A stretch of DNA of 64,000 nucleotides, from assembly GCA_036337435.1 (NCBI GenBank), contig JAYZEG010000010.1, positions 32,001-96,000 of the forward strand, given 5' to 3'. This document shows, in pieces, positions 16,376 through 29,768 of the stretch. A program made the position numbers and the translations under genes. Below the pieces are notes generated by a model that was not told the origin of the DNA, ran no database searches, and saw nothing but the letters and a program-made list of their open reading frames with translations. Every line of letters starts with the position of its first letter. The first letter of the stretch is position 1. The stretch is from Myxococcota bacterium (GTDB lineage: Bacteria > Myxococcota_A > Bradymonadia > UBA7976 > UBA1532).

Positions 16376-18322
16376 ATGACGGCGATTGAAATCCTGGCCT
16401 CTCGAAAGCTACTGGACGAACTCGAACCATTTCATTTGATTTGGTGCAAATCAGGGCCACTCGAACACATCTCTGAAAAGGCCCGGGCGTATTTTGAATG
16501 CGCTTCAACCAGCAATGAATCCACCGGCACAATCGTTTATCTGCTCCATCCATTCCACGCAGTGATGACACTAGAGATCATGAAAGGCCTAGGCCAATCG
16601 ACCATCAAGATTAGCCATCAGCCCAAAGGATCACGGGTTCTTTCGGGTCGACTTCTAGACAGTGAAGGTGTGGGAGGCTGGCTCTTTGTCGGCACACCCG
16701 AGAACGTGGATGACCAAATGGACAGCACGCAGACGGACAAAGCTGTGCGCCCGGATGGCGTACAAAACAGCTCGAAACAAGTCCGATGGAGCCACAGCGA
16801 GAGTGACTTTGATGTGGTGTCAGACTTGAGTCCACACAGTGAACGTCAAGGCCGGGACGATAAGCGACCCGTATACAATGCACCCCTGAGCCAACTCGAA
16901 CTCGAGAGTACACTGGGTGAACTGAAGCGAACGCAGGCCACGCTGGTACAGCAGGAGCGATTGAAGGCGGTCGGCGAGATGGTTCGAGGGATTGCCCACG
17001 ACTTCAGCAATATACTGACTCCGATTTCTGCGTATTCATGGTTGCTCAAATCTCACCCAGAGGTATCCCCTGCTGAACGGGACGAATATGTTGACTTGAT
17101 CATGACAGCCACCAAGGATGCCCATGCTTTGATCGAACGACTTCGGCGCCTCTATAATCCAGCCAGTTCGTCTGCCACATACTCGTCTTTCGATATCAAC
17201 GGTCTCATCAAAGAAACGCTGCGTTTAGCTGAACCAAGATGGGCTGACCAATTGGGAGCAGAATCACAGTCGGTTGAGATTGTTGAGTCTCTACAGTCCG
17301 TGGGATTGATGACGGCGGTCGAAAGTGACATTCGTCAAGCCCTACTCAATCTTCTGTACAATGCGGCAGATGCCATCAAGAAAAACGGTGTGATTGCGGT
17401 GGAAAGTATCTCGGATGAGCAACGGATATGGATCTCAATCTGTGACGATGGGTCCGGAATGAATCCTGAGGTTCTTGAAACATGTGCGACCCCGTTTTTC
17501 ACGACCAAGGGTGACGCCGGAACCGGCTTAGGTCTGCCGATGGTCTTCGAGACGGCAGTGCGGCACGGCGGGGACGTACGGATTGAGTCAGAGCTGGGTC
17601 ATGGCACACGCGTCACACTCTGTTTACCCAGGCAACCGCTAGAAAATGGAGCGAGTGAAATCCATGCGACATCGACAGCCATCGCTGCGAGGCTTGTGAC
17701 CCGGGTTGGACTCGACGCCGGTGCGCTAGCCACACCCATTGGCCAAGGCGATGGTGAACATCATATGAGTGACAGTGACGTACTTGACGCCCTTTTCGAG
17801 GCTGCACTCGATCCGAATATGGTGACTCAAGAGGTCATGTATCCACCAGGCGCGTTCGCTTTGGAACAAACCGCCTCCATGGACGTTCAGAGCAGCACAA
17901 AGCCAAAAACTTCAGACCCATCAGAGCAACAGGCACTCAAGTCGGATGATACGCTCCACATTCTCGTCGTCGATGATGATGAGGCCATCCTCAACGTCCT
18001 CAGTCGAATCATCGATACCCATGGCCATACGAGTTACACAGCTGAAAATGGCTCGCAGGCTCTCGTACTCGCTGACCGCTTGGATTTTGACCTGGTGATT
18101 TGTGACTTGGACATGCCTGGCATGAAGGGAGACCAGCTTTGCCTGTCTTTAAAGCAACTATCTCCCAGGGCCAAGCTCATCATGTTTACTGGAAATCCCG
18201 ACGGCATAGTCCCAGATGCTCGACATATCTTGGACGCGATAGTGACCAAACCAAACTCTCCCGTCGATGTACTTATGGCCGGCATTGACTTGGTATACTC
18301 CGGACGTAACACGTCGAATTAA
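16376..18322 (+). CDS. Hybrid histidine kinase with N-terminal HNOBA/PAS-like domain
   Basis: AHDFSN H-box, NAADA, DDGSGM, PFFTTK, GTGLGL; C-terminal receiver LVVDDD..DLDMPG. Confidence 0.9.
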   Translation: MTAIEILASRKLLDELEPFHLIWCKSGPLEHISEKARAYFECASTSNESTGTIVYLLHPFHAVMTLEIMKGLGQSTIKISHQPKGSRVLSGRLLDSEGVGGWLFVGTPENVDDQMDSTQTDKAVRPDGVQNSSKQVRWSHSESDFDVVSDLSPHSERQGRDDKRPVYNAPLSQLELESTLGELKRTQATLVQQERLKAVGEMVRGIAHDFSNILTPISAYSWLLKSHPEVSPAERDEYVDLIMTATKDAHALIERLRRLYNPASSSATYSSFDINGLIKETLRLAEPRWADQLGAESQSVEIVESLQSVGLMTAVESDIRQALLNLLYNAADAIKKNGVIAVESISDEQRIWISICDDGSGMNPEVLETCATPFFTTKGDAGTGLGLPMVFETAVRHGGDVRIESELGHGTRVTLCLPRQPLENGASEIHATSTAIAARLVTRVGLDAGALATPIGQGDGEHHMSDSDVLDALFEAALDPNMVTQEVMYPPGAFALEQTASMDVQSSTKPKTSDPSEQQALKSDDTLHILVVDDDEAILNVLSRIIDTHGHTSYTAENGSQALVLADRLDFDLVICDLDMPGMKGDQLCLSLKQLSPRAKLIMFTGNPDGIVPDARHILDAIVTKPNSPVDVLMAGIDLVYSGRNTSN

Positions 18323-18327
18323 AGCCT

Positions 18328-19158
18328 TCACACGTCCTTAAACCACGGACTGGTCGAACCATAAACAGCCTGCTCTACAGACTGGTATATGTCCGGATTC
18401 AGGGCCGCAAATTGCTGTATGACCGTTTTGATGTCACGCCGTTTTGCTCGGGGAAAAGTATCACATACGGGACATGCAACAGCACCAATGCCCGACGTCG
18501 AAAGCCAGCTTCGAATCTTACGTTCATCGACGAAAAGCAGTGGGCGAATGGTCAACGTTGGAGACGCTGAGGCCGGTGTCATAGCCTTCAAAGGATCTAA
18601 TCGTCGTCCAAATAATAAGTTGAGAAAAAATGTCTCCAGGGCGTCATCCAGGTGGTGCCCGAGCGCGAGCTTGTTATAGCCGTTTTCAGCACACCAATCG
18701 TTCAATATGCCGCGTCGCATGCGACTACAGATCGAACAGGGAATCTGGCCCGGCTTTAGCTTCTGTTCAACCACCGACCAAGTGTCTCGATCGATGATTT
18801 CACACTCGACATCAAGTCGTTTCAGGCTGCGTTCAAAAGTGACATGATCGAACCCGGGTTGACCCTGGTCGAGATGGATGACCTGAAAATCGAAGCTCAA
18901 ATCATGTCGCAGCATCAACTGCTTGAAGACACTGATGAGCAACAATGAGTCTTTACCACCAGAACAGCCAACCGCAACGCGGTCACCATTTTTGATTAAG
19001 TCAAACTTGTGAATGGCATGTTCGACAGAGCGCATAATTGCTTTGGACGGGGTATCCGACGACGCAATGGACGGTTGAGGATCAGCCGCGTCTCTCAACT
19101 GGACTAATTCCGGTTCGGATACCGAGGTTAATGGTCCTAAATCTGACATCGTATACAC
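18328..19158 (-). CDS. ttcA: tRNA 2-thiocytidine biosynthesis protein TtcA
   Basis: SGGKDS PP-loop, HLDQGQPGF, CSICSRMRRG, ALGHHLDD, IRPL, CPVC. Confidence 0.85.
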   Translation of the reverse strand: MYTMSDLGPLTSVSEPELVQLRDAADPQPSIASSDTPSKAIMRSVEHAIHKFDLIKNGDRVAVGCSGGKDSLLLISVFKQLMLRHDLSFDFQVIHLDQGQPGFDHVTFERSLKRLDVECEIIDRDTWSVVEQKLKPGQIPCSICSRMRRGILNDWCAENGYNKLALGHHLDDALETFFLNLLFGRRLDPLKAMTPASASPTLTIRPLLFVDERKIRSWLSTSGIGAVACPVCDTFPRAKRRDIKTVIQQFAALNPDIYQSVEQAVYGSTSPWFKDV

Positions 19159-19235
19159 CCAGAAAAATCACATCTCGTGTGATCTACTAGCAAAAACTGA
19201 GAACGCTTTCCACGGGTCGGTGCCAGAGTTGCTGC

Positions 19236-20324
19236 CTAGTCATCAGCAACAAATCCAGGCCAGCGAGTAAGATAATCGGCAAAGACGGAACTCACACCCT
19301 CGTGGGCCAACACCTGTCGAGTGACAGGCAATGGTCGCGGATGAAAATTGCGATCAGCCATCACCAAAGCTGGGAAATCGTGATGAAGAATACCGGCACG
19401 ACCGATACCAACGAAGTCGACTCCCCGAGAAAGGACGGTTTCTACATCTGGCGCGGTTTTAATTTTTCCTGCGACCGTCAGTTTTGTCTGTCCACGTTCT
19501 AGGGAAGAAAAGACCTCCAACAAACCATGCTCATCATCTGGATTATGGTCACTTTTCTTCTTGTAATCCCACAAGGAGACATCCAAAAAATCCACGTTTT
19601 TTTTTCCGACCAAGAGTCTGAAAACGTCAATGGCCTCAGGCAATTCGATGCCGTACTTTTCCGGCGAGAGCCTTAATCCCAATAAAAATTGTGAACCACA
19701 AACCTGACGTATGCCGTCGATAATGTCCGAGATCAGTCGCATGCGGTTCAAAACTGAACCGCCGAACTGGTCGGTTCTGCGGTTGTACTTGGCACTTAAG
19801 AATTGGCAGAGCAGATAGTCGTGAGCCCCGTGAATCTCGACCCCATCATAGCCTGCTGATTGCGCTCTGAAAGCCGCTTCGACAAAATCGCCGCAGAGGG
19901 CCTCTATCTCATTGAGTGTTAATGCACGGGCGCCGGTGGACGCGTCAGGGGACGGACAGACCGGTGGCCCATCGATGACATCAAGGAGGGCTCGCCTACC
20001 TGCATGATGAAGCTGAATAACAGCCACGGCTCCATGTTCTCTGATCCCGCCTGCGAGTCGTCGATGCCCATCGAGAAGCGAATCGGCGTAAATGCCTAAC
20101 TGGCCGGGAAATCCCTGGCCGATTGTTTGAACATGAGCAGCACAAGTCATCACCATGCCAAATTGGCCGACGGCTCGTTTAACAAGCCAATCATATTCTT
20201 CGTCACTGAGAGTGCCGTCCTTAAAGCTCTGACAGTTGGTCATCGGGGCCAACATAAAACGGTTTGGCATAGTCACACCGCAGCGAAAGGACAAGGGCGT
20301 GCCTTGGTCAATGCTTTGATTCAA
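19236..20324 (-). CDS. NADH:flavin oxidoreductase (Old Yellow Enzyme family)
   Basis: NRFMLAPMT, QLHHAG, DGVEIHGAHDYL, NRRTDQFGGS. Confidence 0.9.
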   Translation of the reverse strand: MNQSIDQGTPLSFRCGVTMPNRFMLAPMTNCQSFKDGTLSDEEYDWLVKRAVGQFGMVMTCAAHVQTIGQGFPGQLGIYADSLLDGHRRLAGGIREHGAVAVIQLHHAGRRALLDVIDGPPVCPSPDASTGARALTLNEIEALCGDFVEAAFRAQSAGYDGVEIHGAHDYLLCQFLSAKYNRRTDQFGGSVLNRMRLISDIIDGIRQVCGSQFLLGLRLSPEKYGIELPEAIDVFRLLVGKKNVDFLDVSLWDYKKKSDHNPDDEHGLLEVFSSLERGQTKLTVAGKIKTAPDVETVLSRGVDFVGIGRAGILHHDFPALVMADRNFHPRPLPVTRQVLAHEGVSSVFADYLTRWPGFVADD

Positions 20325-20493
20325 TGGCGAACCTCCTTTTTCAAAGTGAGTCGGAGCCCAATCAAATATCAGTGAGCTAAAGACCTATGCAAAATTGGCT
20401 TACAAGAGAAATTCGGGTTCATCATACGAAATTCAGTTTCTGCCGATGAGCAATCTCAGCTCTCATGGAGGCCCAGACAATACGGGGCCATCA

Positions 20494-22236
20494 TCAATTA
20501 TCAGCCCATTCAATACGGCGGGCGGCTGATACAATATCTGAAGGCAAAGCCGACCGATAGGCCTGGTCGAAGGCATCGGCCAATTGACCGGCAGTCGAAA
20601 ACCGGTCTACGGGATCGGGTGCCATGGCGATGCTCAGAAAATCGCTGATCTGCCCATCTAAATCCGGGGCTACGACCTGAGGGCGAGTTGGCCTTTGATA
20701 CGCTGCTGCCGCAACGGCATTAAAGCCAGACCCCTGGAAGGGCGGTGCGCCAGTCAAGCAGCGGTAGAGAACCGCACCCAGTGCATACAAATCTGTACGG
20801 TGATCTAGCTCGTGTCCTCGAGCCTGCTCAGGTGCCATATATCGGGGCGTTCCAACCACACAGCCGGCATGTGTCAATGTCTCGGCACCGGTCGTCCACT
20901 TTGAAACACCAAAATCGAGTACCTTCCAAACATTTCGAGTACTGCTTTCTCGGTGCGCGAAAAGATTATGGGGTTTAATGTCCCGGTGGATAACGCCTTG
21001 TTCGTGTGCGGCCGTGAGCCCGCGGCAGATGTGATGTACGAGACGGTGACATGCCCGAACGGATAAGCGTCCGCGGCGCCTCAGAATCGCGGCCAAGTCA
21101 TGTCCGTCGAGACGCTCCATTGCGATATATAACGTTCCATCAGTGTCTTGACCAAATTCATACACTTGCGTCACATGTGGCGACCGGATCTGGCGGGCAA
21201 TTTGTGCCTCGCGCTTGAATCGAGACACGATGGCTTCATTCTGAGTGTCTGACGTGTTCAGAATTTTAAGTGCTGACCGTTTTCCGCTCTTTTGCTCAAC
21301 CGCGTCGTACACTTCACCAGATGCACCCCGCCCGAGTAAGGGACCTAGGCGGTAATCTGAAATTGACTGGCCTGTCAGGCGACCAGACAAGCCCTCATCC
21401 CCGAAAATTCTTTCCAACTCAGCTTGGGCTTCTTCGAGCTGAACTTTTTTTAAATTGATGTCCATAACGGCACTTGCAACCGAGCCCATAGCATTTTCAA
21501 CCGCGTCCCGTGACCAAGTGGCCTGGGCAAAAGTGACGAGCAGAACCATGGGAACCATCAGGGTCATAAAGAGCATAGCCGATGCCCCCGCGTTGTTCCC
21601 GGTGAAAACGCCGATATCCTGGATTCGCCCTGTCAAGACACCAAGGAACAAAGCGAGGGTTAAAATAATGGCTGCAGAGCAAATGAGTACGGCGCCTCTT
21701 CGGTCAGCACCTTGCCCAAAAAAGCTGATACCGAGAGTGATGGCGAGCGCAGTTGGCGAATATGGCCCCAAATAAATAAGCGCGTTTACACAAGCAACGA
21801 CACCCACGATTCCGAAAATCCGAAACACGTTGCGATCGTATTTTTTGGGATTCTTGGCAACCCTCCAAACACCCAGACCTGTCAGTGCGAAAACGAAGAG
21901 GGTCGACGCAAAAATCAAGCTGTGTCCGCTGTGACCGGAATCTAAAAACGGCAGCCAAGCGAGTGTAACCAGACAAATCACACTGAATATGAGTCCGATA
22001 TTGCTTGCACGGATCGCTTCAGCTTCATGCAAACTGAGCTGTATATGTGAAACGGTCACCGCTGATTCAGGGCGTCGATCAAGATTTGAATGATCAACAG
22101 AAATTGGATTGGAGGGTGCGCGCTGGCCTGTTTGTATGGTGACGTCTTGTTCAATATGCCGAACCGCCCGGTCGGTCAGATTCTGAATTGACTCGATTGG
22201 AAAACGAGCGTCGGGTTTTCTGGGCTCAGACATCAA
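20494..22236 (-). CDS. Ser/Thr protein kinase with N-terminal multi-pass membrane domain
   Basis: LGRGASGEVY, ALK, HRDIKPHN, DFG, GTPRYMAPE; about six hydrophobic segments upstream. Confidence 0.92.
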   Translation of the reverse strand: MMSEPRKPDARFPIESIQNLTDRAVRHIEQDVTIQTGQRAPSNPISVDHSNLDRRPESAVTVSHIQLSLHEAEAIRASNIGLIFSVICLVTLAWLPFLDSGHSGHSLIFASTLFVFALTGLGVWRVAKNPKKYDRNVFRIFGIVGVVACVNALIYLGPYSPTALAITLGISFFGQGADRRGAVLICSAAIILTLALFLGVLTGRIQDIGVFTGNNAGASAMLFMTLMVPMVLLVTFAQATWSRDAVENAMGSVASAVMDINLKKVQLEEAQAELERIFGDEGLSGRLTGQSISDYRLGPLLGRGASGEVYDAVEQKSGKRSALKILNTSDTQNEAIVSRFKREAQIARQIRSPHVTQVYEFGQDTDGTLYIAMERLDGHDLAAILRRRGRLSVRACHRLVHHICRGLTAAHEQGVIHRDIKPHNLFAHRESSTRNVWKVLDFGVSKWTTGAETLTHAGCVVGTPRYMAPEQARGHELDHRTDLYALGAVLYRCLTGAPPFQGSGFNAVAAAAYQRPTRPQVVAPDLDGQISDFLSIAMAPDPVDRFSTAGQLADAFDQAYRSALPSDIVSAARRIEWADN

Positions 22237-22510
22237 CTGCGTCCAACATGGCTAGGTCTCGATTAGTCTAGCATGATCTTATCGTCTGCACCCATGTTCA
22301 TTGGACATCCGACTCTATTCTAAACGGATAGCATCATCGGAATGTCACAGGTCAAACGTAGATGACTGACCGACGGGCTGACGCCTCAATTATAACGCCC
22401 GATGAGGGCAATTAATGACTCGGTCTTTTGACCCCACTTGTGTGACCTACTGTCCACATTTATCGGTTCATGACGGCAAGGTTCACCTGAGCTTGGCCTC
22501 CCCGTAAACT

Positions 22511-22526
22511 TGGCATGCGGCTTGCT
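22511..22526 (+). promoter_or_regulatory. Sigma54 -24/-12 promoter
   Basis: TGGCATG-CGGC-TTGCT versus consensus TGGCACG-N4-TTGCW; exact GG-N10-GC spacing. Confidence 0.75.
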
Positions 22527-22536
22527 ATCTCATGGA

Positions 22537-22945
22537 CGCAGGAAAGCAACTTGGGTCCAGAAGGAGGACCACCACGAGGGTCGATGCCGTGACACGTACG
22601 TCAACGCATCGGACAAGAAATTCAGTCTCGGCCTACAAGCTATAGAGGTAGCGGGCATCACGTCCCCCATCCCCCCCAGTGGATGCTCGCTACCCTCATT
22701 TTTACCAGGGTGCGTGACAGTCTGGTTGCTAAATGAGGGTGCTCAATAAGCGAGTCAGACAGGCTAAAGGTAGCGGGCATCACGCCCCCGTCCCCCCAAC
22801 AGGATGCTCGCTACCTCTCATTTTTTTCGGTAGGCAAGCCGTAAACCCATACGCGTTGCGGTTCTTGACATGACCTAAACTCTAGGCAGCGGGTATCCGT
22901 CTCCCCTCCGTCCCCCAAACAGGATACTCGCTGCCTCGCCTCACT
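22537..22945 (+). ncRNA. Putative sigma54-driven structured RNA or tandem sRNA precursor
   Basis: No credible CDS between the promoter and the convergent antiporter gene; 5' hairpins plus three conserved C-loop hairpins; ends inferred. Confidence 0.65.
22647..22936 (+). repeat. Three dispersed copies of a ~50-nt C-rich-loop hairpin (22647-22694, 22768-22816, 22884-22936)
   Basis: GGYAGCGGGYATC-[C-rich loop]-GATRCTCGCTRCC; periods of 122 and 116 bp; unrelated intervening sequence. Confidence 0.95.
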
Positions 22946-22996
22946 TAAAACAAAGCAGCTACCAGGGACCAGACGGGTTGGTCAATACCCCCGAAA

Positions 22997-24178
22997 TTAA
23001 GAGAATAGCGACGACGAAAATGGGGGGATCAGCTTCATGGCAGTTGCCACAATGTACGCAGTCCAGAAAATGTACAAACTGCCGAGGAACCAGCCTCTTC
23101 CCTTACCAACGCTGACAGTTCGAGTCCCATCATCGGCGGTGCCTCGAGGCCCAGTCAGAAAGGTCAACAAGATAATGACGGTTGCGCCAACCAAGATAAT
23201 TCGAAGGTCTTGAACTGCCGCCCCGCTTCCAGCTGTACCGCCCGTCAATGCGATCTCACTGCCGTTGTAGAGGCAGTAGGCCAGCAGGGGTAATCCCAAG
23301 GCAACACAGATGTCGAAAATATTACTCCCAACAGCATTAGACACCGCATCGTCGTAATCTCCCTTCATCGCGTCTTTGTAGGAGATGACGGTATCTGGAA
23401 CGCTGGTTGCCGCAGCCCCCAGGATGACAGCAGTGAAGTATGCTGGTACACCGAGTGCGTCAGCGGAATGGATTACGGCCTCGGCTAAGAAATAGCATGC
23501 ACCGCCGATGGTTGCCGTGGCGCAAATCAGAACGACCCATGCGGAGCCTTTGGTAAACTCGTTGCCGCCATAAATCAGATTATTGTAATCGAAGGTAAGC
23601 AGATTGGCGACAAAGCCCTTATGCTCGTCCTCCTCATCATCATCATCATCGTCGTCGTCATCATCTCCCCCGCCCATGCCACGAAGGAGAACGCCAAAGT
23701 AGACGACATAAATACCGATCAAAGCTGCACCCATCCACCAAGCCAATGCGGTGTTGCCGAGAAATACGATGAGTGCGACCTCAGCTAGGATGAAGAAGAA
23801 TCCGTCTCGCAGAAGCGTACTCTGCCCCAAACTAACGCTGTTAATTACCTCGCCATTTACGCCTTTCGTGGTCACGGCAATAATGCAGACGGCTGGTATG
23901 ACAGCTGCATTGAACACGGCACTGCCCGCGCATGTTGCGATACCAGCGGAGAAGCCATCGGTGTCGTGATAGAGAAAGAGCAGAAATAAGGTGGTGAACA
24001 ATTCCGGTAGAGAACTTGCGATCGCTTCGATGGTCGCGCCTCGAATACCGGGCTTCATCTTATAGACTTTCTTCCCCAAATGGTCTGAAGCCCCCTCAAA
24101 CGAATCGCAGGCGAACTTAATGACATACATCGCGGCACAAACCAGCCCTAAAGACTGCATGAGTTTCGTTACGTCCAA
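22997..24178 (-). CDS. Ca2+/cation antiporter (CaCA, YrbG-like)
   Basis: Alpha repeats ASSLPEL..GSAVFN and ATSVPD..VGSNIFD; poly-Asp central loop. Confidence 0.9.
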   Translation of the reverse strand: MDVTKLMQSLGLVCAAMYVIKFACDSFEGASDHLGKKVYKMKPGIRGATIEAIASSLPELFTTLFLLFLYHDTDGFSAGIATCAGSAVFNAAVIPAVCIIAVTTKGVNGEVINSVSLGQSTLLRDGFFFILAEVALIVFLGNTALAWWMGAALIGIYVVYFGVLLRGMGGGDDDDDDDDDDEEDEHKGFVANLLTFDYNNLIYGGNEFTKGSAWVVLICATATIGGACYFLAEAVIHSADALGVPAYFTAVILGAAATSVPDTVISYKDAMKGDYDDAVSNAVGSNIFDICVALGLPLLAYCLYNGSEIALTGGTAGSGAAVQDLRIILVGATVIILLTFLTGPRGTADDGTRTVSVGKGRGWFLGSLYIFWTAYIVATAMKLIPPFSSSLFS

Positions 24179-24345
24179 TTTATGCTTCTCCTTGAAATGA
24201 ACGGAGGTATAGGCGAATCAAAAGTCATCTAGCCGGTCAACGCAATCTGAGTCGACCGGCTAAATCATGGCCCGTTAAATACCCGTCTGACAACCCGATG
24301 CCGTATCGTGTTTGACGGCACGGCACCGGAGTCGTTTCCTCGGAC

Positions 24346-26124
24346 CTAATCGTCCAAGTTGTATTGGAAGAAATTATCCCATTTCTCGTCCATGGCGCGA
24401 AGTGCTTCGTCCATTGGAACCGCCCAATATTGACCATTTTTGTGGGCCACGATGGGGAGAAACTTCCTCATACTATCCTGTTCTTCAGACGGCTTCGGTA
24501 GATTGTCCGCACCAGCATCGGCCGCGACGAGTTCCAAAGCACCGTCGACATCAAAATCGACCTCGAGGTCGTTGAAATTATCTTTGAGGAAAACTTCGAC
24601 AGCTTCGTCTAGATCTTCCGATGACATGGTTTTAGTCGGTTGCCCATTGGCACCGATAACAGCTTGGTTTTTGACAAGTAACAGATATGAGAGGAACGCT
24701 TCTTTAAATTCTTGTTCTTCAACCGAGTCGACCAAGAACTGCATCACGCCCATGTTACTGTCGAGATTTCGCTCGTAGAGGTCTTGCGCAATCTTAGCGA
24801 TGTATTTGACCCGTGTGCGTAAGAATCCAGTTACAGTCTTCAATAAGACCGCGACCATGATACCAATAAATGCGAGAAAACCACCGCCGCTGCCATCGTC
24901 TGAGCCGCCGGTTGCTTTGACAATACCTGTGATTAACGTCGCCAGAACAACGAGGCTTAACACCGTTTTGTCGAAAGGCCGCATCTTGAGTTTCTTCTCT
25001 GGGAAGACGACCTCAAGGTCAGCCATTGGAATGTTCTTGAAAATCTTGATGGAAATGGGCTTGACCGCCGGTTCCTCAGGCTTCTTGAACATCTTATTGA
25101 CCATGCCGCCCAAGAGCGGATTGGTTCGAAGTGCCCTAAATGGGTCTTTTGCCTTCAAGCGAAACAAACAAATGACACGCTCGAAAGCTGGTTCCTGCAG
25201 CGTTGTTTTGCCAACAAATGAACCCCAGTTGGTCAGCTGGTTCTCTAGATTCATTCGCCGCAACCAGCGGGGTAGAAATGCGACATCAATGTCTTTTCGT
25301 TCAGGTGCTTTATACTCTTCTTCAACAGCACCCAATTGCTCCTGCAGTTTCTTCGAGAAAGAGGCCACCAATCGAATCGCTAACTTGACGACCCGCTCGA
25401 CCAAGAGGTTCACCTTGCTTAAAAGAAAAGCACCCTCTACGCGTTCAGGTGTCTTACCCCGTGTAAAGATGAGCATTTGGTCTTTGGTATCTTCAGGCTG
25501 GTCGATCCACTCATTGAATGAACCTGCATCCGATGGAATACAGTCGGCCAACTGGGCTTTACCTTCAGCTGTTTCGGACCACGCCGAAAAATCTCTAATG
25601 AGCTCGGGATCATGGCCTGTCCAGTTTGCATCAACCGGCATATCGAATACGAAGGTCGACGCATCGGCTAAGTCGTATTCTGGCTGGGTCAATGGATTGA
25701 AGTTGCCGCGTTCCATCAACTTCATGAAATTGGACAGAAAACGGCGTTCCCGGTGCTGGATTTCTTCTTCGGACAGGGCAACGGCGACCGTCTCATCATC
25801 ATCGTCGTCATCGTCTTCCACGACATCAGGAGAGAAAAATTCGTAATCTTCTTTGAGCTGGTTAAGCGTTTCGTGGAAATGAAAATGATAAATCCCATCG
25901 AGCAATTCGACAAAGTGCTTAAATTTCTCGACCTCGTCCTCCGAGCGCGCGTAGTCGCCCTTAAAAGCGGCTACAACCTTGGCTTTGCTAATCGGGATAT
26001 ACATTTCATGAGGGATCTCGACCCACTCACGATCTTCGCCAACCCCGCTGGGCGGCTCCTCTCCGCGCCAATAGGTCTCTCCCCATTTCTCCGGCTTAAT
26101 CCAGACGTTTGCTTCATCACTCAC
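24346..26124 (-). CDS. TMEM143/DUF3754 family protein
   Basis: LKEDYEFFSP, KIFKNIPMADLEVVFPEKK, EEQEFKEAFLSY, VDFDVDGAL; GTG start at 26124 after GGAGGAG. Confidence 0.8.
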   Translation of the reverse strand: MSDEANVWIKPEKWGETYWRGEEPPSGVGEDREWVEIPHEMYIPISKAKVVAAFKGDYARSEDEVEKFKHFVELLDGIYHFHFHETLNQLKEDYEFFSPDVVEDDDDDDDETVAVALSEEEIQHRERRFLSNFMKLMERGNFNPLTQPEYDLADASTFVFDMPVDANWTGHDPELIRDFSAWSETAEGKAQLADCIPSDAGSFNEWIDQPEDTKDQMLIFTRGKTPERVEGAFLLSKVNLLVERVVKLAIRLVASFSKKLQEQLGAVEEEYKAPERKDIDVAFLPRWLRRMNLENQLTNWGSFVGKTTLQEPAFERVICLFRLKAKDPFRALRTNPLLGGMVNKMFKKPEEPAVKPISIKIFKNIPMADLEVVFPEKKLKMRPFDKTVLSLVVLATLITGIVKATGGSDDGSGGGFLAFIGIMVAVLLKTVTGFLRTRVKYIAKIAQDLYERNLDSNMGVMQFLVDSVEEQEFKEAFLSYLLLVKNQAVIGANGQPTKTMSSEDLDEAVEVFLKDNFNDLEVDFDVDGALELVAADAGADNLPKPSEEQDSMRKFLPIVAHKNGQYWAVPMDEALRAMDEKWDNFFQYNLDD

Positions 26125-26530
26125 GTCAAAAAACTCCTCCCAACACATCAGCCTTTGCCGACGGTCGATCCAATGGTTTTGTTGTCATCATGAAAGGCGG
26201 GCCACAGTGAATTATATATCAAAAACAATCTAGGCTGGGACCCATTCCCCATCCGTTACTGGGCGCAGTCTAAGTCGTTCCATGCCCATTTGCCAAGTAA
26301 ATAGAAATAACAGAATCTGGCCCGTTGAAAGATCCGTAAAAAGACAAATGTTGTTCCGTATGCAGCGGCATCAATGTGCCGATTTTATGGGCTTTTAGAG
26401 AGATTAAGACGGAAAATCCTAATGCAAATCTCGGCAATGCGTTCGAAAAACCCGGTTTATTATACCCATTAAAGACTCTTGAATAGCCCATTGTTCACCT
26501 GTACTGTCCAGATACTTTGGAGGAAATATT

Positions 26531-26956
26531 ATGGTATCTAGAAAGCTTAAATTTACAGCACAACAAGTGGCGTGGCGGGCTGCATTTGCCCTGATTATCA
26601 CGCTGATCACGTTCAACCCGATCAAGTCATTCTTTGGTTCATTGGCCGATACGGTTTGGAGCCCAATGCCCTGGGGAACGATTCTATTCGCGCTCATTTT
26701 GGTCGCAGGGTGGGCATTCATACTGATAAATGCAAAACAACTCCTCGGCAAATGGGGCTTTATTGCAATTTTGGTCATTTTTGGAACTTTCGTCGCGATG
26801 CTGGTTTCGAAGGGGATGGTCTCAAGTGGCAAGGGGGCTGCCTGGATCGGGACTTTGGGCCTGTGGTTGCTGGCAACGATATCACTGACAGGCGGATATA
26901 TTTTCCGCTATTTGACCGGGCGCCTTCATGTCGAAGATGGAGATATGGACGCTTAG
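26531..26956 (+). CDS. Small membrane protein, DUF6524-like
   Basis: GGAGG RBS; four TM segments; TFNP and C-terminal RYLTGRLHVED pattern. Confidence 0.7.
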   Translation: MVSRKLKFTAQQVAWRAAFALIITLITFNPIKSFFGSLADTVWSPMPWGTILFALILVAGWAFILINAKQLLGKWGFIAILVIFGTFVAMLVSKGMVSSGKGAAWIGTLGLWLLATISLTGGYIFRYLTGRLHVEDGDMDA

Positions 26957-26977
26957 GCTCAGAAAATTATTTTGAGA

Positions 26978-27007
26978 AAGCCGGGCGTTGTGACGTCCGG
27001 CTTTTTT
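26978..27007 (+). terminator. Intrinsic terminator
   Basis: AAGCCGGGCGT-tgtg-ACGTCCGGCTT followed by a T run. Confidence 0.8.
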
Positions 27008-27320
27008 ATTGACCCAAAACCGGCAACAGAACTTTGCTCAGGGTGATAGACCCCAACGGAGCCAAACTCAACGACTCGCACTCAGGGCGGCTTTGAACCA
27101 CATAGACAAACGAGAGGTGGTCTAAAGTCAATCTCCACTGCCTGAGGTCTGAATCGTTTGTTGACCGGCTTACCGAGCCAGGTCAGGCTAAAAATGCGAT
27201 GACGTCTAACAAGATATTTGATTCTCACGCCGCCTCATGTCGTACTTCGGTTTGTCTAGACTTGATTAATCAAAGACATACTTAATTTAAAATCGACCGG
27301 TCCCCGGTTGGAGCAGACGA

Positions 27321-29768
27321 ATGAAACGATACGTACTCTTCCTTTTGACAACCGCCCTCATCACCGGGTGCATCGAATCACGGACATCCTCGGTCGACCC
27401 TGGAGAGAGTGCCGACTCGGCGACAACGGATACAGGTGGAGACGGTCAAGACGGCGCATCCAATATGCCCGTTGATGCGAGTGTGGACGCCGTGCCAACA
27501 AATGGCTGCGAGATAGAGGCCGATTGCCCTGCCGGGTCTGATTGCGTAGACGGACAGTGTACGGACCCTGAATGTCTAGATGACGACCAATGCACAGCCT
27601 TCGTTCAGGGCTGTGTCGAAGGCGCTTGTCGGGACAGATGCGTTGGACCCGGCACGTGTTTTAGGGGGGGACAATGTCAAGATGGCTTCTGCCTTCCGCC
27701 TGAATGCGAGTCGGACGCCGCATGTGATGAGAACCGATTTTGCCGCGATGGACGTTGCGTCGATATCGCCAGCTGTGAGGCCGATTCGGAATGTGGTCCC
27801 GATGAGCGTTGCGTCGAGAATTTATGTGAGGCTCTTCCTGACTGTGTTGGCGACAGAGAATGTGCCGAGAATGCCATTTGTGAAAGCGGTCGTTGTCGCC
27901 CTCAGAGCGCATGTTCGTCAGACAATGACTGTGAGGGGGACGAGGATTGCGTAGGCGGCCGTTGCGTTCCGACGGTCTGCCGGGGCGCCAGCGATTGCGC
28001 CCCGGACCAAGCGTGCTGGGACGGCCGTTGCGTGGACAACACGATCCTCGAAATTGAAACCATTGCGATTACCAACTACCCGCGTGTCATCAGGGTTAAT
28101 GCAGCTCCCTCGGCCTTGAATGCCGTCGCGCTCGACATACGCGGCGATGTGGTTCCAATCGCAGCAGAACGATTTTCATGGCGCTCGAACGATGAGGCCG
28201 TGCTTTCGTTCAATGACCGGGGTCTGCTCCGTCCAGTCCAAGTTGGCACAGCTGAGGTGGTCGCCTCGTTCACTCTTAACTCTGGTGATGTCGTCGACAG
28301 TCCGCCTGTATCTATTCGAGTGATTCCGAGCCGAATGGACGAAGTCCAACCGGATCAGATGACCCTCCGCATTGTGGATGCCGACGACGGGCGCTCGGTA
28401 GGTGGGTCCGTGATTGTCTACGGTGATCAAGAGGTGACGGTGGATGAGACGGGTGTCGCAATACTTGACGTCATCGAAGACGTCATCCCGATGCACGTGT
28501 TCTCTAACGATCATGATTATTTCACCGTGGTCGCGACACTTGAGAGTGATTCGTACGTGATTCCTTTACGCCGTCGAAGCTCTAATTCACGCATCGCCGG
28601 TATGTCCGGAGCTGTAGACTTCAGCGATATTCAAACCGAGGGAGGCGTCGATATCAGTCTTTCGGGGCCTTCCGTAGGTCAGCGGATGTCTGACCTGTCG
28701 TTCAATAGCTTGCTCGGCCCCACTTTCAATGTCGCCATCAATGCGGGACCCGCCAGTTTCGACATCCCAATCCCAAGTGGTGTGACGTTAGCCGCCGATG
28801 TACCGATCATCGGTCGAATCGAAGCCAAAAGTGATTTCTACGGAACGACAGAGCCAGGCATCCGACTGGCCTGGTCACTGGCTGGTCGAATAGATATTGG
28901 CCGACTCACTCAACTGGCACAAGGAGGTGACGGAGGTGCTGTGGGACAAGTCCTCGCGGCGATTCTTCCGTATTTTGAGACGTTTCAGCATGGACTGAGG
29001 GTCGGAGAGCGATTGGTCGCACTCCCCCAAGTCCCCGACGAAAATGATCTCGATGGTGATGGTGACGTCAATGAACTTAGACCGGATTATGACCGATTCC
29101 CCGTGCTCAATATCCGGCCAAACCAGGCTCAAGACCTGCGGTTGACCATCGATGTCAGTAACATATTTGTCCCTGAAGACCTATTGATCGTCTTTTCTGG
29201 TGTCACACTGCCAGGCATTGGTTTTGTGCCGTTGGGTGTGACGGCGGCGGACGAACCGGGGGAATACCCGGCCCGGATGGCCGCACCGTATGGTGGTCTG
29301 GAAGTGGGTATCCCGACATTTGTTGGCTTGTCTGCTCGTTTCGGCGATGGCCAGACCTTACCTGAGTCTCTGACAATTCATGTCCAGCGCAGTGACGATT
29401 TGAGGATTCCCAATCAGGTGGCCTTTGCGGCAGCACCCGTAACACGCCCTGAGATTGCAGAATGGAACAGCGTCATGCGCTCATTCGACGGTGCAGGTTC
29501 AGACGCATCGGATGCACACCGACTCGTACTCTTCGGTCCGGACGGTCGATGGGATGTTTACTTTGGTCCAAACGCCGATACTCAAATTAACCTGCCCTTT
29601 CCACCCGACGGGTACGATGACCTCGCCGCTGGCCCGGAACGACGCTTCGAGGCTCTCCAGTTCTCTGAAGACGTCCAACAAACGCTCAGTGAACTGTTCC
29701 GATTCGAAGGCAGAGGCATCAGTCAACTCGACGATCTACTGAGAACGATTGGCAAGCGGACACTCTAA
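27321..29768 (+). CDS. Large lipoprotein with tandem Cys-rich repeats and an Ig-like domain
   Basis: Lipobox ITGC; repeated CxxDxxC...CxxGxC; WRSNDEAVLSF Big_2-like segment. Confidence 0.8.
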   Translation: MKRYVLFLLTTALITGCIESRTSSVDPGESADSATTDTGGDGQDGASNMPVDASVDAVPTNGCEIEADCPAGSDCVDGQCTDPECLDDDQCTAFVQGCVEGACRDRCVGPGTCFRGGQCQDGFCLPPECESDAACDENRFCRDGRCVDIASCEADSECGPDERCVENLCEALPDCVGDRECAENAICESGRCRPQSACSSDNDCEGDEDCVGGRCVPTVCRGASDCAPDQACWDGRCVDNTILEIETIAITNYPRVIRVNAAPSALNAVALDIRGDVVPIAAERFSWRSNDEAVLSFNDRGLLRPVQVGTAEVVASFTLNSGDVVDSPPVSIRVIPSRMDEVQPDQMTLRIVDADDGRSVGGSVIVYGDQEVTVDETGVAILDVIEDVIPMHVFSNDHDYFTVVATLESDSYVIPLRRRSSNSRIAGMSGAVDFSDIQTEGGVDISLSGPSVGQRMSDLSFNSLLGPTFNVAINAGPASFDIPIPSGVTLAADVPIIGRIEAKSDFYGTTEPGIRLAWSLAGRIDIGRLTQLAQGGDGGAVGQVLAAILPYFETFQHGLRVGERLVALPQVPDENDLDGDGDVNELRPDYDRFPVLNIRPNQAQDLRLTIDVSNIFVPEDLLIVFSGVTLPGIGFVPLGVTAADEPGEYPARMAAPYGGLEVGIPTFVGLSARFGDGQTLPESLTIHVQRSDDLRIPNQVAFAAAPVTRPEIAEWNSVMRSFDGAGSDASDAHRLVLFGPDGRWDVYFGPNADTQINLPFPPDGYDDLAAGPERRFEALQFSEDVQQTLSELFRFEGRGISQLDDLLRTIGKRTL

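Follow-up and report, generated by a model that had tools for sequence, protein, structure and literature searches.

A sigma-54 promoter and a conserved array of C-loop hairpins mark a probable new family of small regulatory RNAs in Myxococcota

The window analyzed here, a 64,000-nt stretch of contig JAYZEG010000010.1 (positions 32,001–96,000; GenBank assembly GCA_036337435.1), comes from the 4.38-Mb genome of a Myxococcota bacterium (95 contigs, 52.6% G+C, 87% complete; designated G000). The gap between a gene for a Ser/Thr protein kinase and one for a Na_Ca_ex family cation antiporter houses three similar hairpins with C-rich loops, arrayed in tandem behind a sigma-54 promoter (Table 1), and RNA read from the plus strand would diverge from the kinase gene and converge on the antiporter gene. 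A first-pass annotation of the sequence had proposed that this array is a multi-unit small-RNA (sRNA) locus, processed or differentially terminated into several regulators directed against ribosome-binding sites (RBSs). We conclude that the array is a real, conserved, and undescribed sigma-54-dependent sRNA locus, which represents a new family within an established type of regulator, and we consider it very probable that the locus gives rise to a structured, sigma-54-driven, plus-strand RNA. The proposal held up as regards a sigma-54-driven, plus-strand, non-coding, multi-unit locus outside Rfam; its serial terminators became doubtful.

Table 1. Features of the hairpin array and the flanking genes. 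Positions are numbered from the first nucleotide of the window.
Feature	Position	Strand	Remarks
Conserved upstream element, candidate enhancer (upstream activating sequence, UAS) for a sigma-54 activator	22418–22448	+	Alignments A2 and A3
Sigma-54 promoter TGGCAT-GCGGC-TTGCT, TGGCATgcggcTTGCT	22511–22526	+	-24 GG at 22512–13; -12 GC at 22524–25
Leader, ~110 nt, predicted start to first hairpin	22537–22646	+	Low conservation in A2 and A3
Hairpin h1, 13-bp stem, arms GGTAGCGGGCATC / GATGCTCGCTACC, loop ACGUCCCCCAUCCCCCCCAGUG	22647–22694	+	Fold z -4.6
CTCATTTTT directly after h1, containing the CUCAUUUUU tract	22695–22703	+	Pairs with AAAUGAGGG of spacer hairpin
Spacer stem-loop between h1 and h2	22691–22741	+	-25.5 kcal/mol; z -4.7; 0 of 200 shuffles as good
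Hairpin h2, 13-bp stem, arms as in h1, loop ACGCCCCCGUCCCCCCAACAG	22769–22815	+	Fold z -4.0
TCTCATTTTTTT after h2 (UCUCAUUUUUUU)	22816–22827	+	Sequence read
Hairpin h3, 14-bp stem, arms GGCAGCGGGTATCC / GGATACTCGCTGCC, loop GUCUCCCCUCCGUCCCCCAAACA	22885–22935	+	Fold z -6.0
Ser/Thr protein kinase, 580 aa, kinase domain residues 296–549	20494–22236	-	Pfam Pkinase, E 6.9e-48; divergent from array
Na_Ca_ex family cation antiporter	22997–24178	-	Pfam, E 8.3e-30; convergent with array

The hairpins begin 122 and then 116 nt apart and present C-rich loops of 20–23 nt with the consensus CCNCC-R-UCCCCC. Compared to the stems of h1 and h2, the h3 stem contains two compensatory pairs, and one G.U pair is common to all three. 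Re-reading of positions 22200–23200 bore out the hairpins, spacing, arms, loops, and flanking T runs as first annotated, and a table of the pairs did the same for the compensatory changes and the shared G.U. On the plus strand, all three hairpins outfolded 200 shuffled sequences each, with weaker z scores on the minus strand (-1.3, -3.3, and -2.8). The arm motif GGYAGCGGGYATC, with up to two mismatches allowed, occurred 13 times in the window compared to an average of 3.98 for 100 shuffled sequences (none as high as 13), and six of the 13 matches were the six hairpin arms. A pattern describing the full hairpin found three copies in the 4.38-Mb genome, all at this locus and in one orientation (0 for the reversed pattern), and a covariance model (CM) of the hairpin, R1, found no further copies in this genome or in those of two related species (G002 and G001). 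The first-pass annotation had noted that hairpins scattered in both orientations would point to an element of the repetitive extragenic palindrome (REP) or miniature inverted-repeat transposable element (MITE) type; because the only copies in the genome sit at a single locus, the array is not a repeat of this kind.

Multiple comparisons support conservation of the array within its genus, g1, which consists of G000, G001, G002, and G003 in a sample of 113 genomes of the class (28 from the same family, 85 from other families). First, the sister species G002 has the kinase and antiporter neighbors, a near-identical upstream block, and two hairpins 124 nt apart, and the array of the third species, G001 (100% complete), repeats every 105 nt, counts at least four hairpins, and is interrupted by an assembly break, giving module numbers of 3 (G000), 2 (G002), and at least 4 (G001). 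The antiporter gene adjoins the array in all three species (orthologue identity 94% in G002 and 86% in G001); the kinase gene is also a neighbor in G002, and its place in G001 is occupied by a gene for a sigma-54 activator, or enhancer-binding protein (EBP), directly upstream on the strand of the array. Second, in an alignment of the ten hairpins of G000, G002, and G001 (A4), 95% of 140 cells form standard pairs and both sides change in 5 of the 14 pairs; none of 500 shuffles matched the covariation score or the paired fraction, and slid controls paired in 33–62% of cells. Third, 12 wobble cells shift position by species (G.U at 16-56 in G000 and at 17-55 in G001, U.G in G002). The plus strand is therefore the functional one, as the minus strand would have A.C mismatches in place of these wobble pairs. 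R1 scored h1 at 75.5 bits on the plus strand versus 26.7 on the minus strand, and scored h2 at 81 and h3 at 75.7 bits. Finally, strong R1 matches were confined to three of the four genus g1 genomes among the 113 of the class. G003 (89% complete, 840 contigs) matched neither the hairpins nor the antiporter and is uninformative on presence or absence.

Searches farther afield gave candidates that we rejected. A BLAST match in G016 (E 0.006, from a comparison of the locus with 61 genomes) reflected a chance similarity of 26 nt in GC-rich sequence and lacked a hairpin. Run X1, labeled a marine metagenome, contains near-identical pieces of the window stretch, and a pattern scan of metagenomes gave 18 loci, one of them genuine (L052, with the hairpin sequence and scores of G002); the other 17 were chance matches without a hairpin, and no new members were gained. 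An antiporter homologue in another Myxococcota metagenome-assembled genome (L030, 55% identity) had no hairpin by unfiltered R1. Within the locus itself, a 79-aa open reading frame (ORF) at 22510–22749 was rejected as coding, because indels of 1, 2, and 3 nt break its frame in the alignment of G000 with G002 (A2).

The sigma-54 promoter described as near-perfect in the first-pass annotation is present and is kept in both related species. Its sequence, TTGGCATgcggcTTGCT, spans 22510–22526 and has the form TGGCAT-N5-TTGCT, and TGGCAYN5TTGCW is rare, with this site being one of 20 on both strands of the whole genome. The counterparts are TGGCATacagcTTGCT in G002 and TGGCACagagaTTGCT in G001, and the -24 and -12 elements are invariant in an alignment of the three species (A3). 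Judging from promoter geometry, transcription would start near 22537. The leader that follows folds no better than shuffled sequences (z -0.7) and is barely alignable across the three species. Approximately 65–80 nt upstream of the -24 element lies a second conserved feature, with the core TGACCCCAC-TTG-TGTGAC at 22429–22446. The block around it is near-identical between G000 and G002 in alignment A2; across the three species (A3), TGACCCCAC and TGTGAC are invariant, the G001 core reads GTGACCCCACCCCTGTGAC, and the G001 flanks are unalignable. This pattern of sequence conservation suggests that a protein binds here. Elsewhere in G000 the upstream motif occurs at 8–9 sites, which is chance level, and none of the eight inspected has a sigma-54 promoter within ~220 nt. 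G000 encodes rpoN (contig C62) and 16 strong EBP genes, none on the contig that bears the array. In G001, the activator that precedes the array (contig C110; L022 688–5372) is a 434-aa protein with an unassigned N-terminal domain of 140 residues, and genes divergent from it encode a 206-aa protein without a Pfam match and two SPFH/Band 7 proteins.

The sequences between hairpins also show structure and conservation. The first-pass annotation described the spacers as unrelated sequence, but the sequence separating h1 from h2 folds into a separate stem-loop, which incorporates the T run after h1. Its counterpart in G002 has a similar fold, in which a C-G pair is replaced by U.G (-16.1 kcal/mol, z -2.9), GACAGTCTGGT and AAATGAGG of the spacer are kept in alignment A2, and a small stem-loop is present in the G001 spacers too. 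In all three species, CAYUUUU follows the internal hairpins and the last hairpin lacks a T run; accordingly, no U tract lies 3' of h3. The U tracts begin 4–5 nt past the stem, at internal hairpins only, which is not the arrangement of an intrinsic terminator, and a scan of 22200–23100 found no intrinsic terminator on the plus strand, although loops of 20–23 nt exceed the reach of that scan. Because the last hairpin has no U tract and the scan found no plus-strand terminator, the U tracts look more like module borders, either processing sites or leaky stops, than like serial terminators. The CUCAUUUUU tract after h1 could mark a processing site or serve as a weak terminator tail. The differential termination proposed in the first-pass annotation is correspondingly hard to maintain in the form of three terminators, because the T run of h1 is sequestered in the spacer hairpin and the last hairpin has none in any of the three species.

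The array matches no described RNA family that we could find. Rfam 15 gave no match in the whole window at gathering thresholds; relaxing the cutoff to E 10 added just two chance rows, both on the opposite strand and off the hairpins. Weak rows (CcsR1, the XIST A repeat, and a trypanosome snoRNA) lie far below the gathering score and away from the hairpins, and we set them aside. This search, which the first-pass annotation had suggested, assigned the array to no family, with the presence of models for the sRNAs Pxr and NrsZ in Rfam 15 unconfirmed. A published description of this RNA was not found; the literature on myxobacterial sRNAs and sigma-54 gave Pxr and unrelated sRNAs, and no myxobacterial sRNA other than Pxr was found in the literature searched.

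A second type of sRNA gene, with a single hairpin, is widespread in the same family. A weak R1 match in the high-GC family genome G027 proved to be two tandem genes, each with its own sigma-54 promoter followed after ~13 nt by a GC-rich hairpin with the loop CCCCUCCCUCC and a C7 tail. The pattern TGGCAYN5YTGCW, then 15–45 nt, then CCCYCCCYCC gave 13 matches, distributed over 10 of the 27 other genomes of the family; the 85 genomes of other families had none (a reversed-pattern control for promoter plus CCCYCCCYCC gave 1). The stems of these units pair in 99.5% of cells, with four pairs changing on both sides, and a second CM, R2, detected the unit in 17 of the 27 family genomes and 10 of 16 genera but in none of the 85 genomes elsewhere in the class; the extra R2 matches carry -24/-12-like elements at equal distance. 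The layout consists of the promoter, ~12–14 nt, a 13–14-bp GC stem, the loop YCCCUCCCUCCU, and a C6–7 tail, always between a divergent mvd gene (diphosphomevalonate decarboxylase) and a convergent pepP gene (aminopeptidase P). There is one unit per genome, apart from genus g8, which has two copies with separate promoters (loci L064–L096; for example, L069 1501–1600 and 1725–1824, L071, and L073 1501–1625). Rfam gave no match to this unit at E up to 1.

The two forms are mutually exclusive among the genomes searched, as R2 matched none of the four genus g1 genomes and R1 had no strong match in any other genus. Both have a sigma-54 promoter, hairpins of like size, and a C-rich loop. The gap between pepP and mvd is closed to ~25 nt in G000, and likewise in genera g16, g3, and g11. 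In genus g2 (G004; locus L098), a diverged unit missed by R2 occupies the pepP–mvd site and carries an upstream motif, GTCACACCCCACCCATTGTGG, similar to the core of the genus g1 element; a motif of this type is expected ~0.006 times in the upstream windows examined, as estimated from its frequency in G000. From these sequence comparisons, the array is likely to be a genus-specific, relocated, and multiplied form of the single-hairpin sigma-54 sRNA of the family. In a genome from another family of the class (G041), we also observed copies of the palindrome GGCTCGCGAGCC bracketing CU-rich CTCCTCTCGCTCCTCCGATCCC in an ~84-nt repeat (L031 ~1380–1610). The hairpins of this G041 array have CCUCC-containing loops, no sigma-54 promoter is evident upstream, and weaker matches occur in the congeners G034 and G047; it may be an analogous anti-Shine-Dalgarno RNA.

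The closest architecture to that of the array belongs to NrsZ, which the first-pass annotation did not name. As described for Pseudomonas by Wenner et al. (2013; PMC4253122), NrsZ, a nitrogen-regulated sRNA, has an RpoN promoter, lies downstream of ntrC, contains three conserved stem-loops with stem-loop spacers, and is processed into modules of ~40–60 nt, with 6, 3, 2, or 1 copies across Pseudomonas species. The array resembles NrsZ in its RpoN promoter, in a single transcript of conserved stem-loops sharing a loop motif, in spacers that are themselves stem-loops, in U tracts at the module borders, and in a species-variable copy number (3, 2, and at least 4); in G001 only, it also lies behind an EBP gene, as NrsZ lies behind the EBP gene ntrC. 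It differs in having C-rich CCNCC-R-UCCCCC loops, where the NrsZ loop motif is ACAGGCAG. Moreover, it comes from a different phylum, has a Ser/Thr kinase gene upstream in G000 and G002 and a 110-nt leader before the first module, and shows no match in Rfam at E up to 10, with the reservation noted above about the NrsZ model. NrsZ has been shown to activate its target, whereas the C-rich loop of the array would suggest repression at RBSs instead.

In loop chemistry, the closest systems are 6C, RsaE, and CcsR. RsaE and RNAIII of Staphylococcus and the CcsR RNAs are base-pairing sRNAs with C-rich loops, CcsR RNAs are co-transcribed with a small ORF, and CCUCC is the core of the anti-Shine-Dalgarno sequence. 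The loop of the single-hairpin unit in the family contains CCUCC. The array resembles 6C, RsaE/RNAIII, and CcsR1–4 ('cuckoo') RNAs in exposing several C-rich loops per RNA or locus, from which G-C pairing with G-rich or Shine-Dalgarno sites, independent of Hfq, would be expected; for the 6C RNA of Actinobacteria, binding of mRNAs by C-rich loops without chaperones is reported (PMC6486639). Unlike these RNAs, to which it is not homologous, the array has a sigma-54 promoter and longer loops dominated by C5–7 runs split by R-U. Unlike CcsR, it has no conserved ORF, and the sole match to CcsR1 (RF02791, with CCUCCUCCC loops) scored 13.7 bits versus a gathering threshold of 65.3 and lies on the minus strand at 23006–23090, outside the hairpins.

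Given these features, the most likely reading of the array is as a chaperone-independent sRNA that pairs with G-rich RBSs. An EBP bound to the upstream element (core TGACCCCAC-N3-TGTGAC) would activate the -24/-12 promoter at 22511–22526. A start near 22537 would yield a primary transcript of ~400 nt, with the variable leader followed by the three 13–14-bp C-loop hairpins. By analogy with NrsZ, the CAYUUUU tracts would probably be the points at which this transcript is cleaved or partly terminated to give hairpin modules, the exposed C tracts of which would most likely pair with Shine-Dalgarno regions (GGAGG/GGGGG) and lower translation of the mRNA. Pairing is expected to proceed through G-C-rich loop contacts without a chaperone because no Hfq match was found in G000 (87% complete). 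For this whole mechanism, including base pairing at RBSs, we judge the balance to be moderately favorable.

Pairing at RBSs is plausible because G-rich motifs are enriched in front of start codons in G000. GGAG peaks at -12 to -10 of 2187 crude start codons (483 versus 68 in a control window), and GGGGG was observed to be ~5-fold enriched at -18 to -6 (102 versus 19), which suggests a subclass of unusually G-rich RBSs in a genome of 52.6% G+C. Predicted duplexes of -18 kcal/mol or better between loops and RBSs numbered 398 for RBS windows versus 214 for control windows, of 3588 (1.9-fold). GGGGGAYGG occurs at 44 sites genome-wide, compared to an estimated ~67 for random sequence. Two individual candidates did not hold. 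The best RBS-overlapping 9-mer match, at a gene for a FliI-like ATPase on contig C24, is at a site not kept in G001, and the best duplex match at a clean RBS, at an ExbD-like gene on C84, has no orthologue match in G001 or G002.

Several results weigh against this reading. First, 9-mer and duplex searches of G000 and checks of orthologues found no conserved target, and the top 20 duplex matches, read as translations only, had no evident common function. Second, the enrichment at RBSs is only ~1.6–1.9-fold, as expected of any C-rich probe, and an exact match to the 12-nt loop complement is absent from the rest of the genome. Third, many identical loops per transcript would fit a protein sponge, too. 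Fourth, no activator could be named. The EBP that adjoins the array in G001 was dropped because its full-length orthologue is limited to G027 (54% identity), with none in G000, G002, G003, G004, G016, G015, or G009. Fifth, R2 scores the genus g1 hairpins at just 14.1 bits (E 0.16) and the location differs too; because R2 does not recognize these hairpins, common descent of the array and the single-hairpin unit is not demonstrated. Sixth, the array is known from three genomes only, and because many of its copies are paralogous, the covariation counts are not independent events and overstate independence. Finally, two metatranscriptome contigs cover the array, X9 at 22635–22797 (depth 9, across the h1 U tract) and X20 at 22840–23032 (depth 5.9), but these RNA-library contigs are only a hint of expression, because contigs leave strand and ends undefined and could stem from carried-over DNA. 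The kinase and antiporter parts of 21800–23600 had no RNA-library contig and run X21 had none, an absence that carries no weight.

The strongest rival is that the array acts as a sponge, with its repeated C-rich loops titrating a C-binding protein of the KH/S1 type or Rho. CsrB and RsmZ sequester CsrA, which binds GGA motifs, and CrcZ, which is sigma-54-dependent too, sequesters Hfq/Crc. Like these RNAs, the array repeats identical loop motifs on one transcript, and 2 to at least 4 copies of one motif per transcript, in species-variable number, are typical of sponges. The absence of a conserved mRNA target and of a 12-nt complement elsewhere makes this a serious rival, even if we think it unlikely to be correct. 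The sponge motifs are GGA or CA-rich. By contrast, the loops of the array lack GGA, although CsrA is encoded in G000; moreover, Hfq was not found there and no candidate C-binding protein was identified in that genome. The relative in the family, with a single hairpin per gene, suits pairing better than titration, and C-rich loops are documented pairing seeds, as in 6C RNA (PMC6486639).

We regard as improbable a cis-acting role, in which the hairpins serve as stabilizers or leaky terminators that meter antisense RNA into the convergent antiporter gene. The antiporter is the sole neighbor kept in three species, always in convergent orientation, and the last hairpin has no U tract in every species. 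Contig X20 extends beyond the antiporter stop at 22997; as a strandless contig, it could equally come from the 3' untranslated region of the antiporter transcript. Against such a role, the gene opposite the related single-hairpin unit in other genera is pepP, the antiporter gene of G001 is ~340 nt away from the last hairpin, and a terminator or roadblock would not need the strong loop conservation observed.

Still less probable is that the array belongs to the Pxr family as a divergent member and does not form a family of its own. The first-pass annotation had drawn a link to Pxr, and several likenesses do hold: both RNAs come from Myxococcota hosts in which no Hfq has been found (myxobacteria are reported to lack Hfq; PMC5684412), both have a sigma-54 promoter and an enhancer site (PMC5568312, PMC5684412, PMC11928866), and both are multiplied in tandem in some lineages, which for Pxr include Cystobacter. 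The functional first loop of Pxr contains an essential cytosine, a C-to-A change of which inactivates it (PMC5568312, PMC5684412), and in G001 an EBP gene immediately precedes the array in the same orientation, as nla19 precedes pxr. The layouts differ, however. Pxr (PMC5568312) combines three distinct stem-loops (SL1–SL3) in one unit of ~100 nt, is reported from Cystobacterineae only, and has its own promoter for each tandem paralogue, whereas the array repeats one hairpin type behind one promoter. Synteny differs as well: pxr lies between nla19, which encodes an EBP, and pxrA/NADH dehydrogenase genes (PMC5568312), whereas the array is flanked by kinase and antiporter genes in G000 and G002 and, in G001, by an EBP gene upstream but the antiporter gene downstream. 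No plus-strand Rfam match appeared at E up to 10 (with the same reservation about the Pxr model), and a primer-derived pxr pattern gave no credible match in a 401-genome sample of the phylum or in 31 genomes of another family. The single-hairpin unit, with its two genes and two promoters in genus g8, is closer to the Pxr layout than is the array in the window. The link to Pxr is an analogy only.

Finally, an origin as DNA-level or incidental repeats without RNA function (REP-like palindromes, bidirectional terminators, or a decaying mobile element) would suit the palindromic, GC-rich, intergenic character of the hairpins and the assembly break inside the G001 array but is strongly disfavored by their restriction to a single locus, by compensatory changes and wobble pairs that are valid on one strand only, by the conserved loop sequence, by the conserved sigma-54 promoter and upstream element in front, and by loops of 20–23 nt in a region where the scan found no plus-strand terminator.

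The array opens no new mechanism. Together with its relative, it constitutes a second sigma-54-controlled sRNA system in the phylum beside Pxr, with single-hairpin genes spread over at least 11 genera and the multi-module array limited to one, and provides two CMs (R1 and R2) for annotation. The modular, variable-copy architecture of the NrsZ type would have arisen in an unrelated lineage with a different seed. Should the C-rich loops act on G-rich RBSs, the system would provide access to post-transcriptional regulation in marine Myxococcota that have not been cultured, and module number as a tuner of regulatory dose would become testable. A wider scenario is speculative, and we would not wager on it as a whole. 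This family of marine and soil Myxococcota might possess a dedicated sigma-54/activator circuit with an anti-Shine-Dalgarno sRNA (loop CCCCUCCCUCC) as its main output, a counterpart of Pxr outside Cystobacterineae that gates a starvation or developmental program at the level of translation; the low-GC marine genus might then have left the pepP–mvd site and rebuilt the RNA as an NrsZ-like array, with loops changed from CCUCC to C5-R-U-C5 and retuned to ~100 genes with G5-type RBSs, and with dosage set by module number.

Two further observations concern genes near the array and elsewhere in the genome. The N-terminal 295 residues of the kinase encoded at 20494–22236 (minus strand), a neighbor kept in G002 but not in G001, have no Pfam match. 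Outside the window, contig C24 contains a flagellar or type III secretion-type gene cluster at ~16600–29300. The RBS for the FliI-like ATPase of this cluster (447 aa, start at C24:27922) is G-rich and overlaps the 3' end of the preceding gene, a short sigma-54 activator gene (339 aa) lies at ~19.5–20.4 kb, and a consensus sigma-54 promoter is present on the minus strand at C24:16606.

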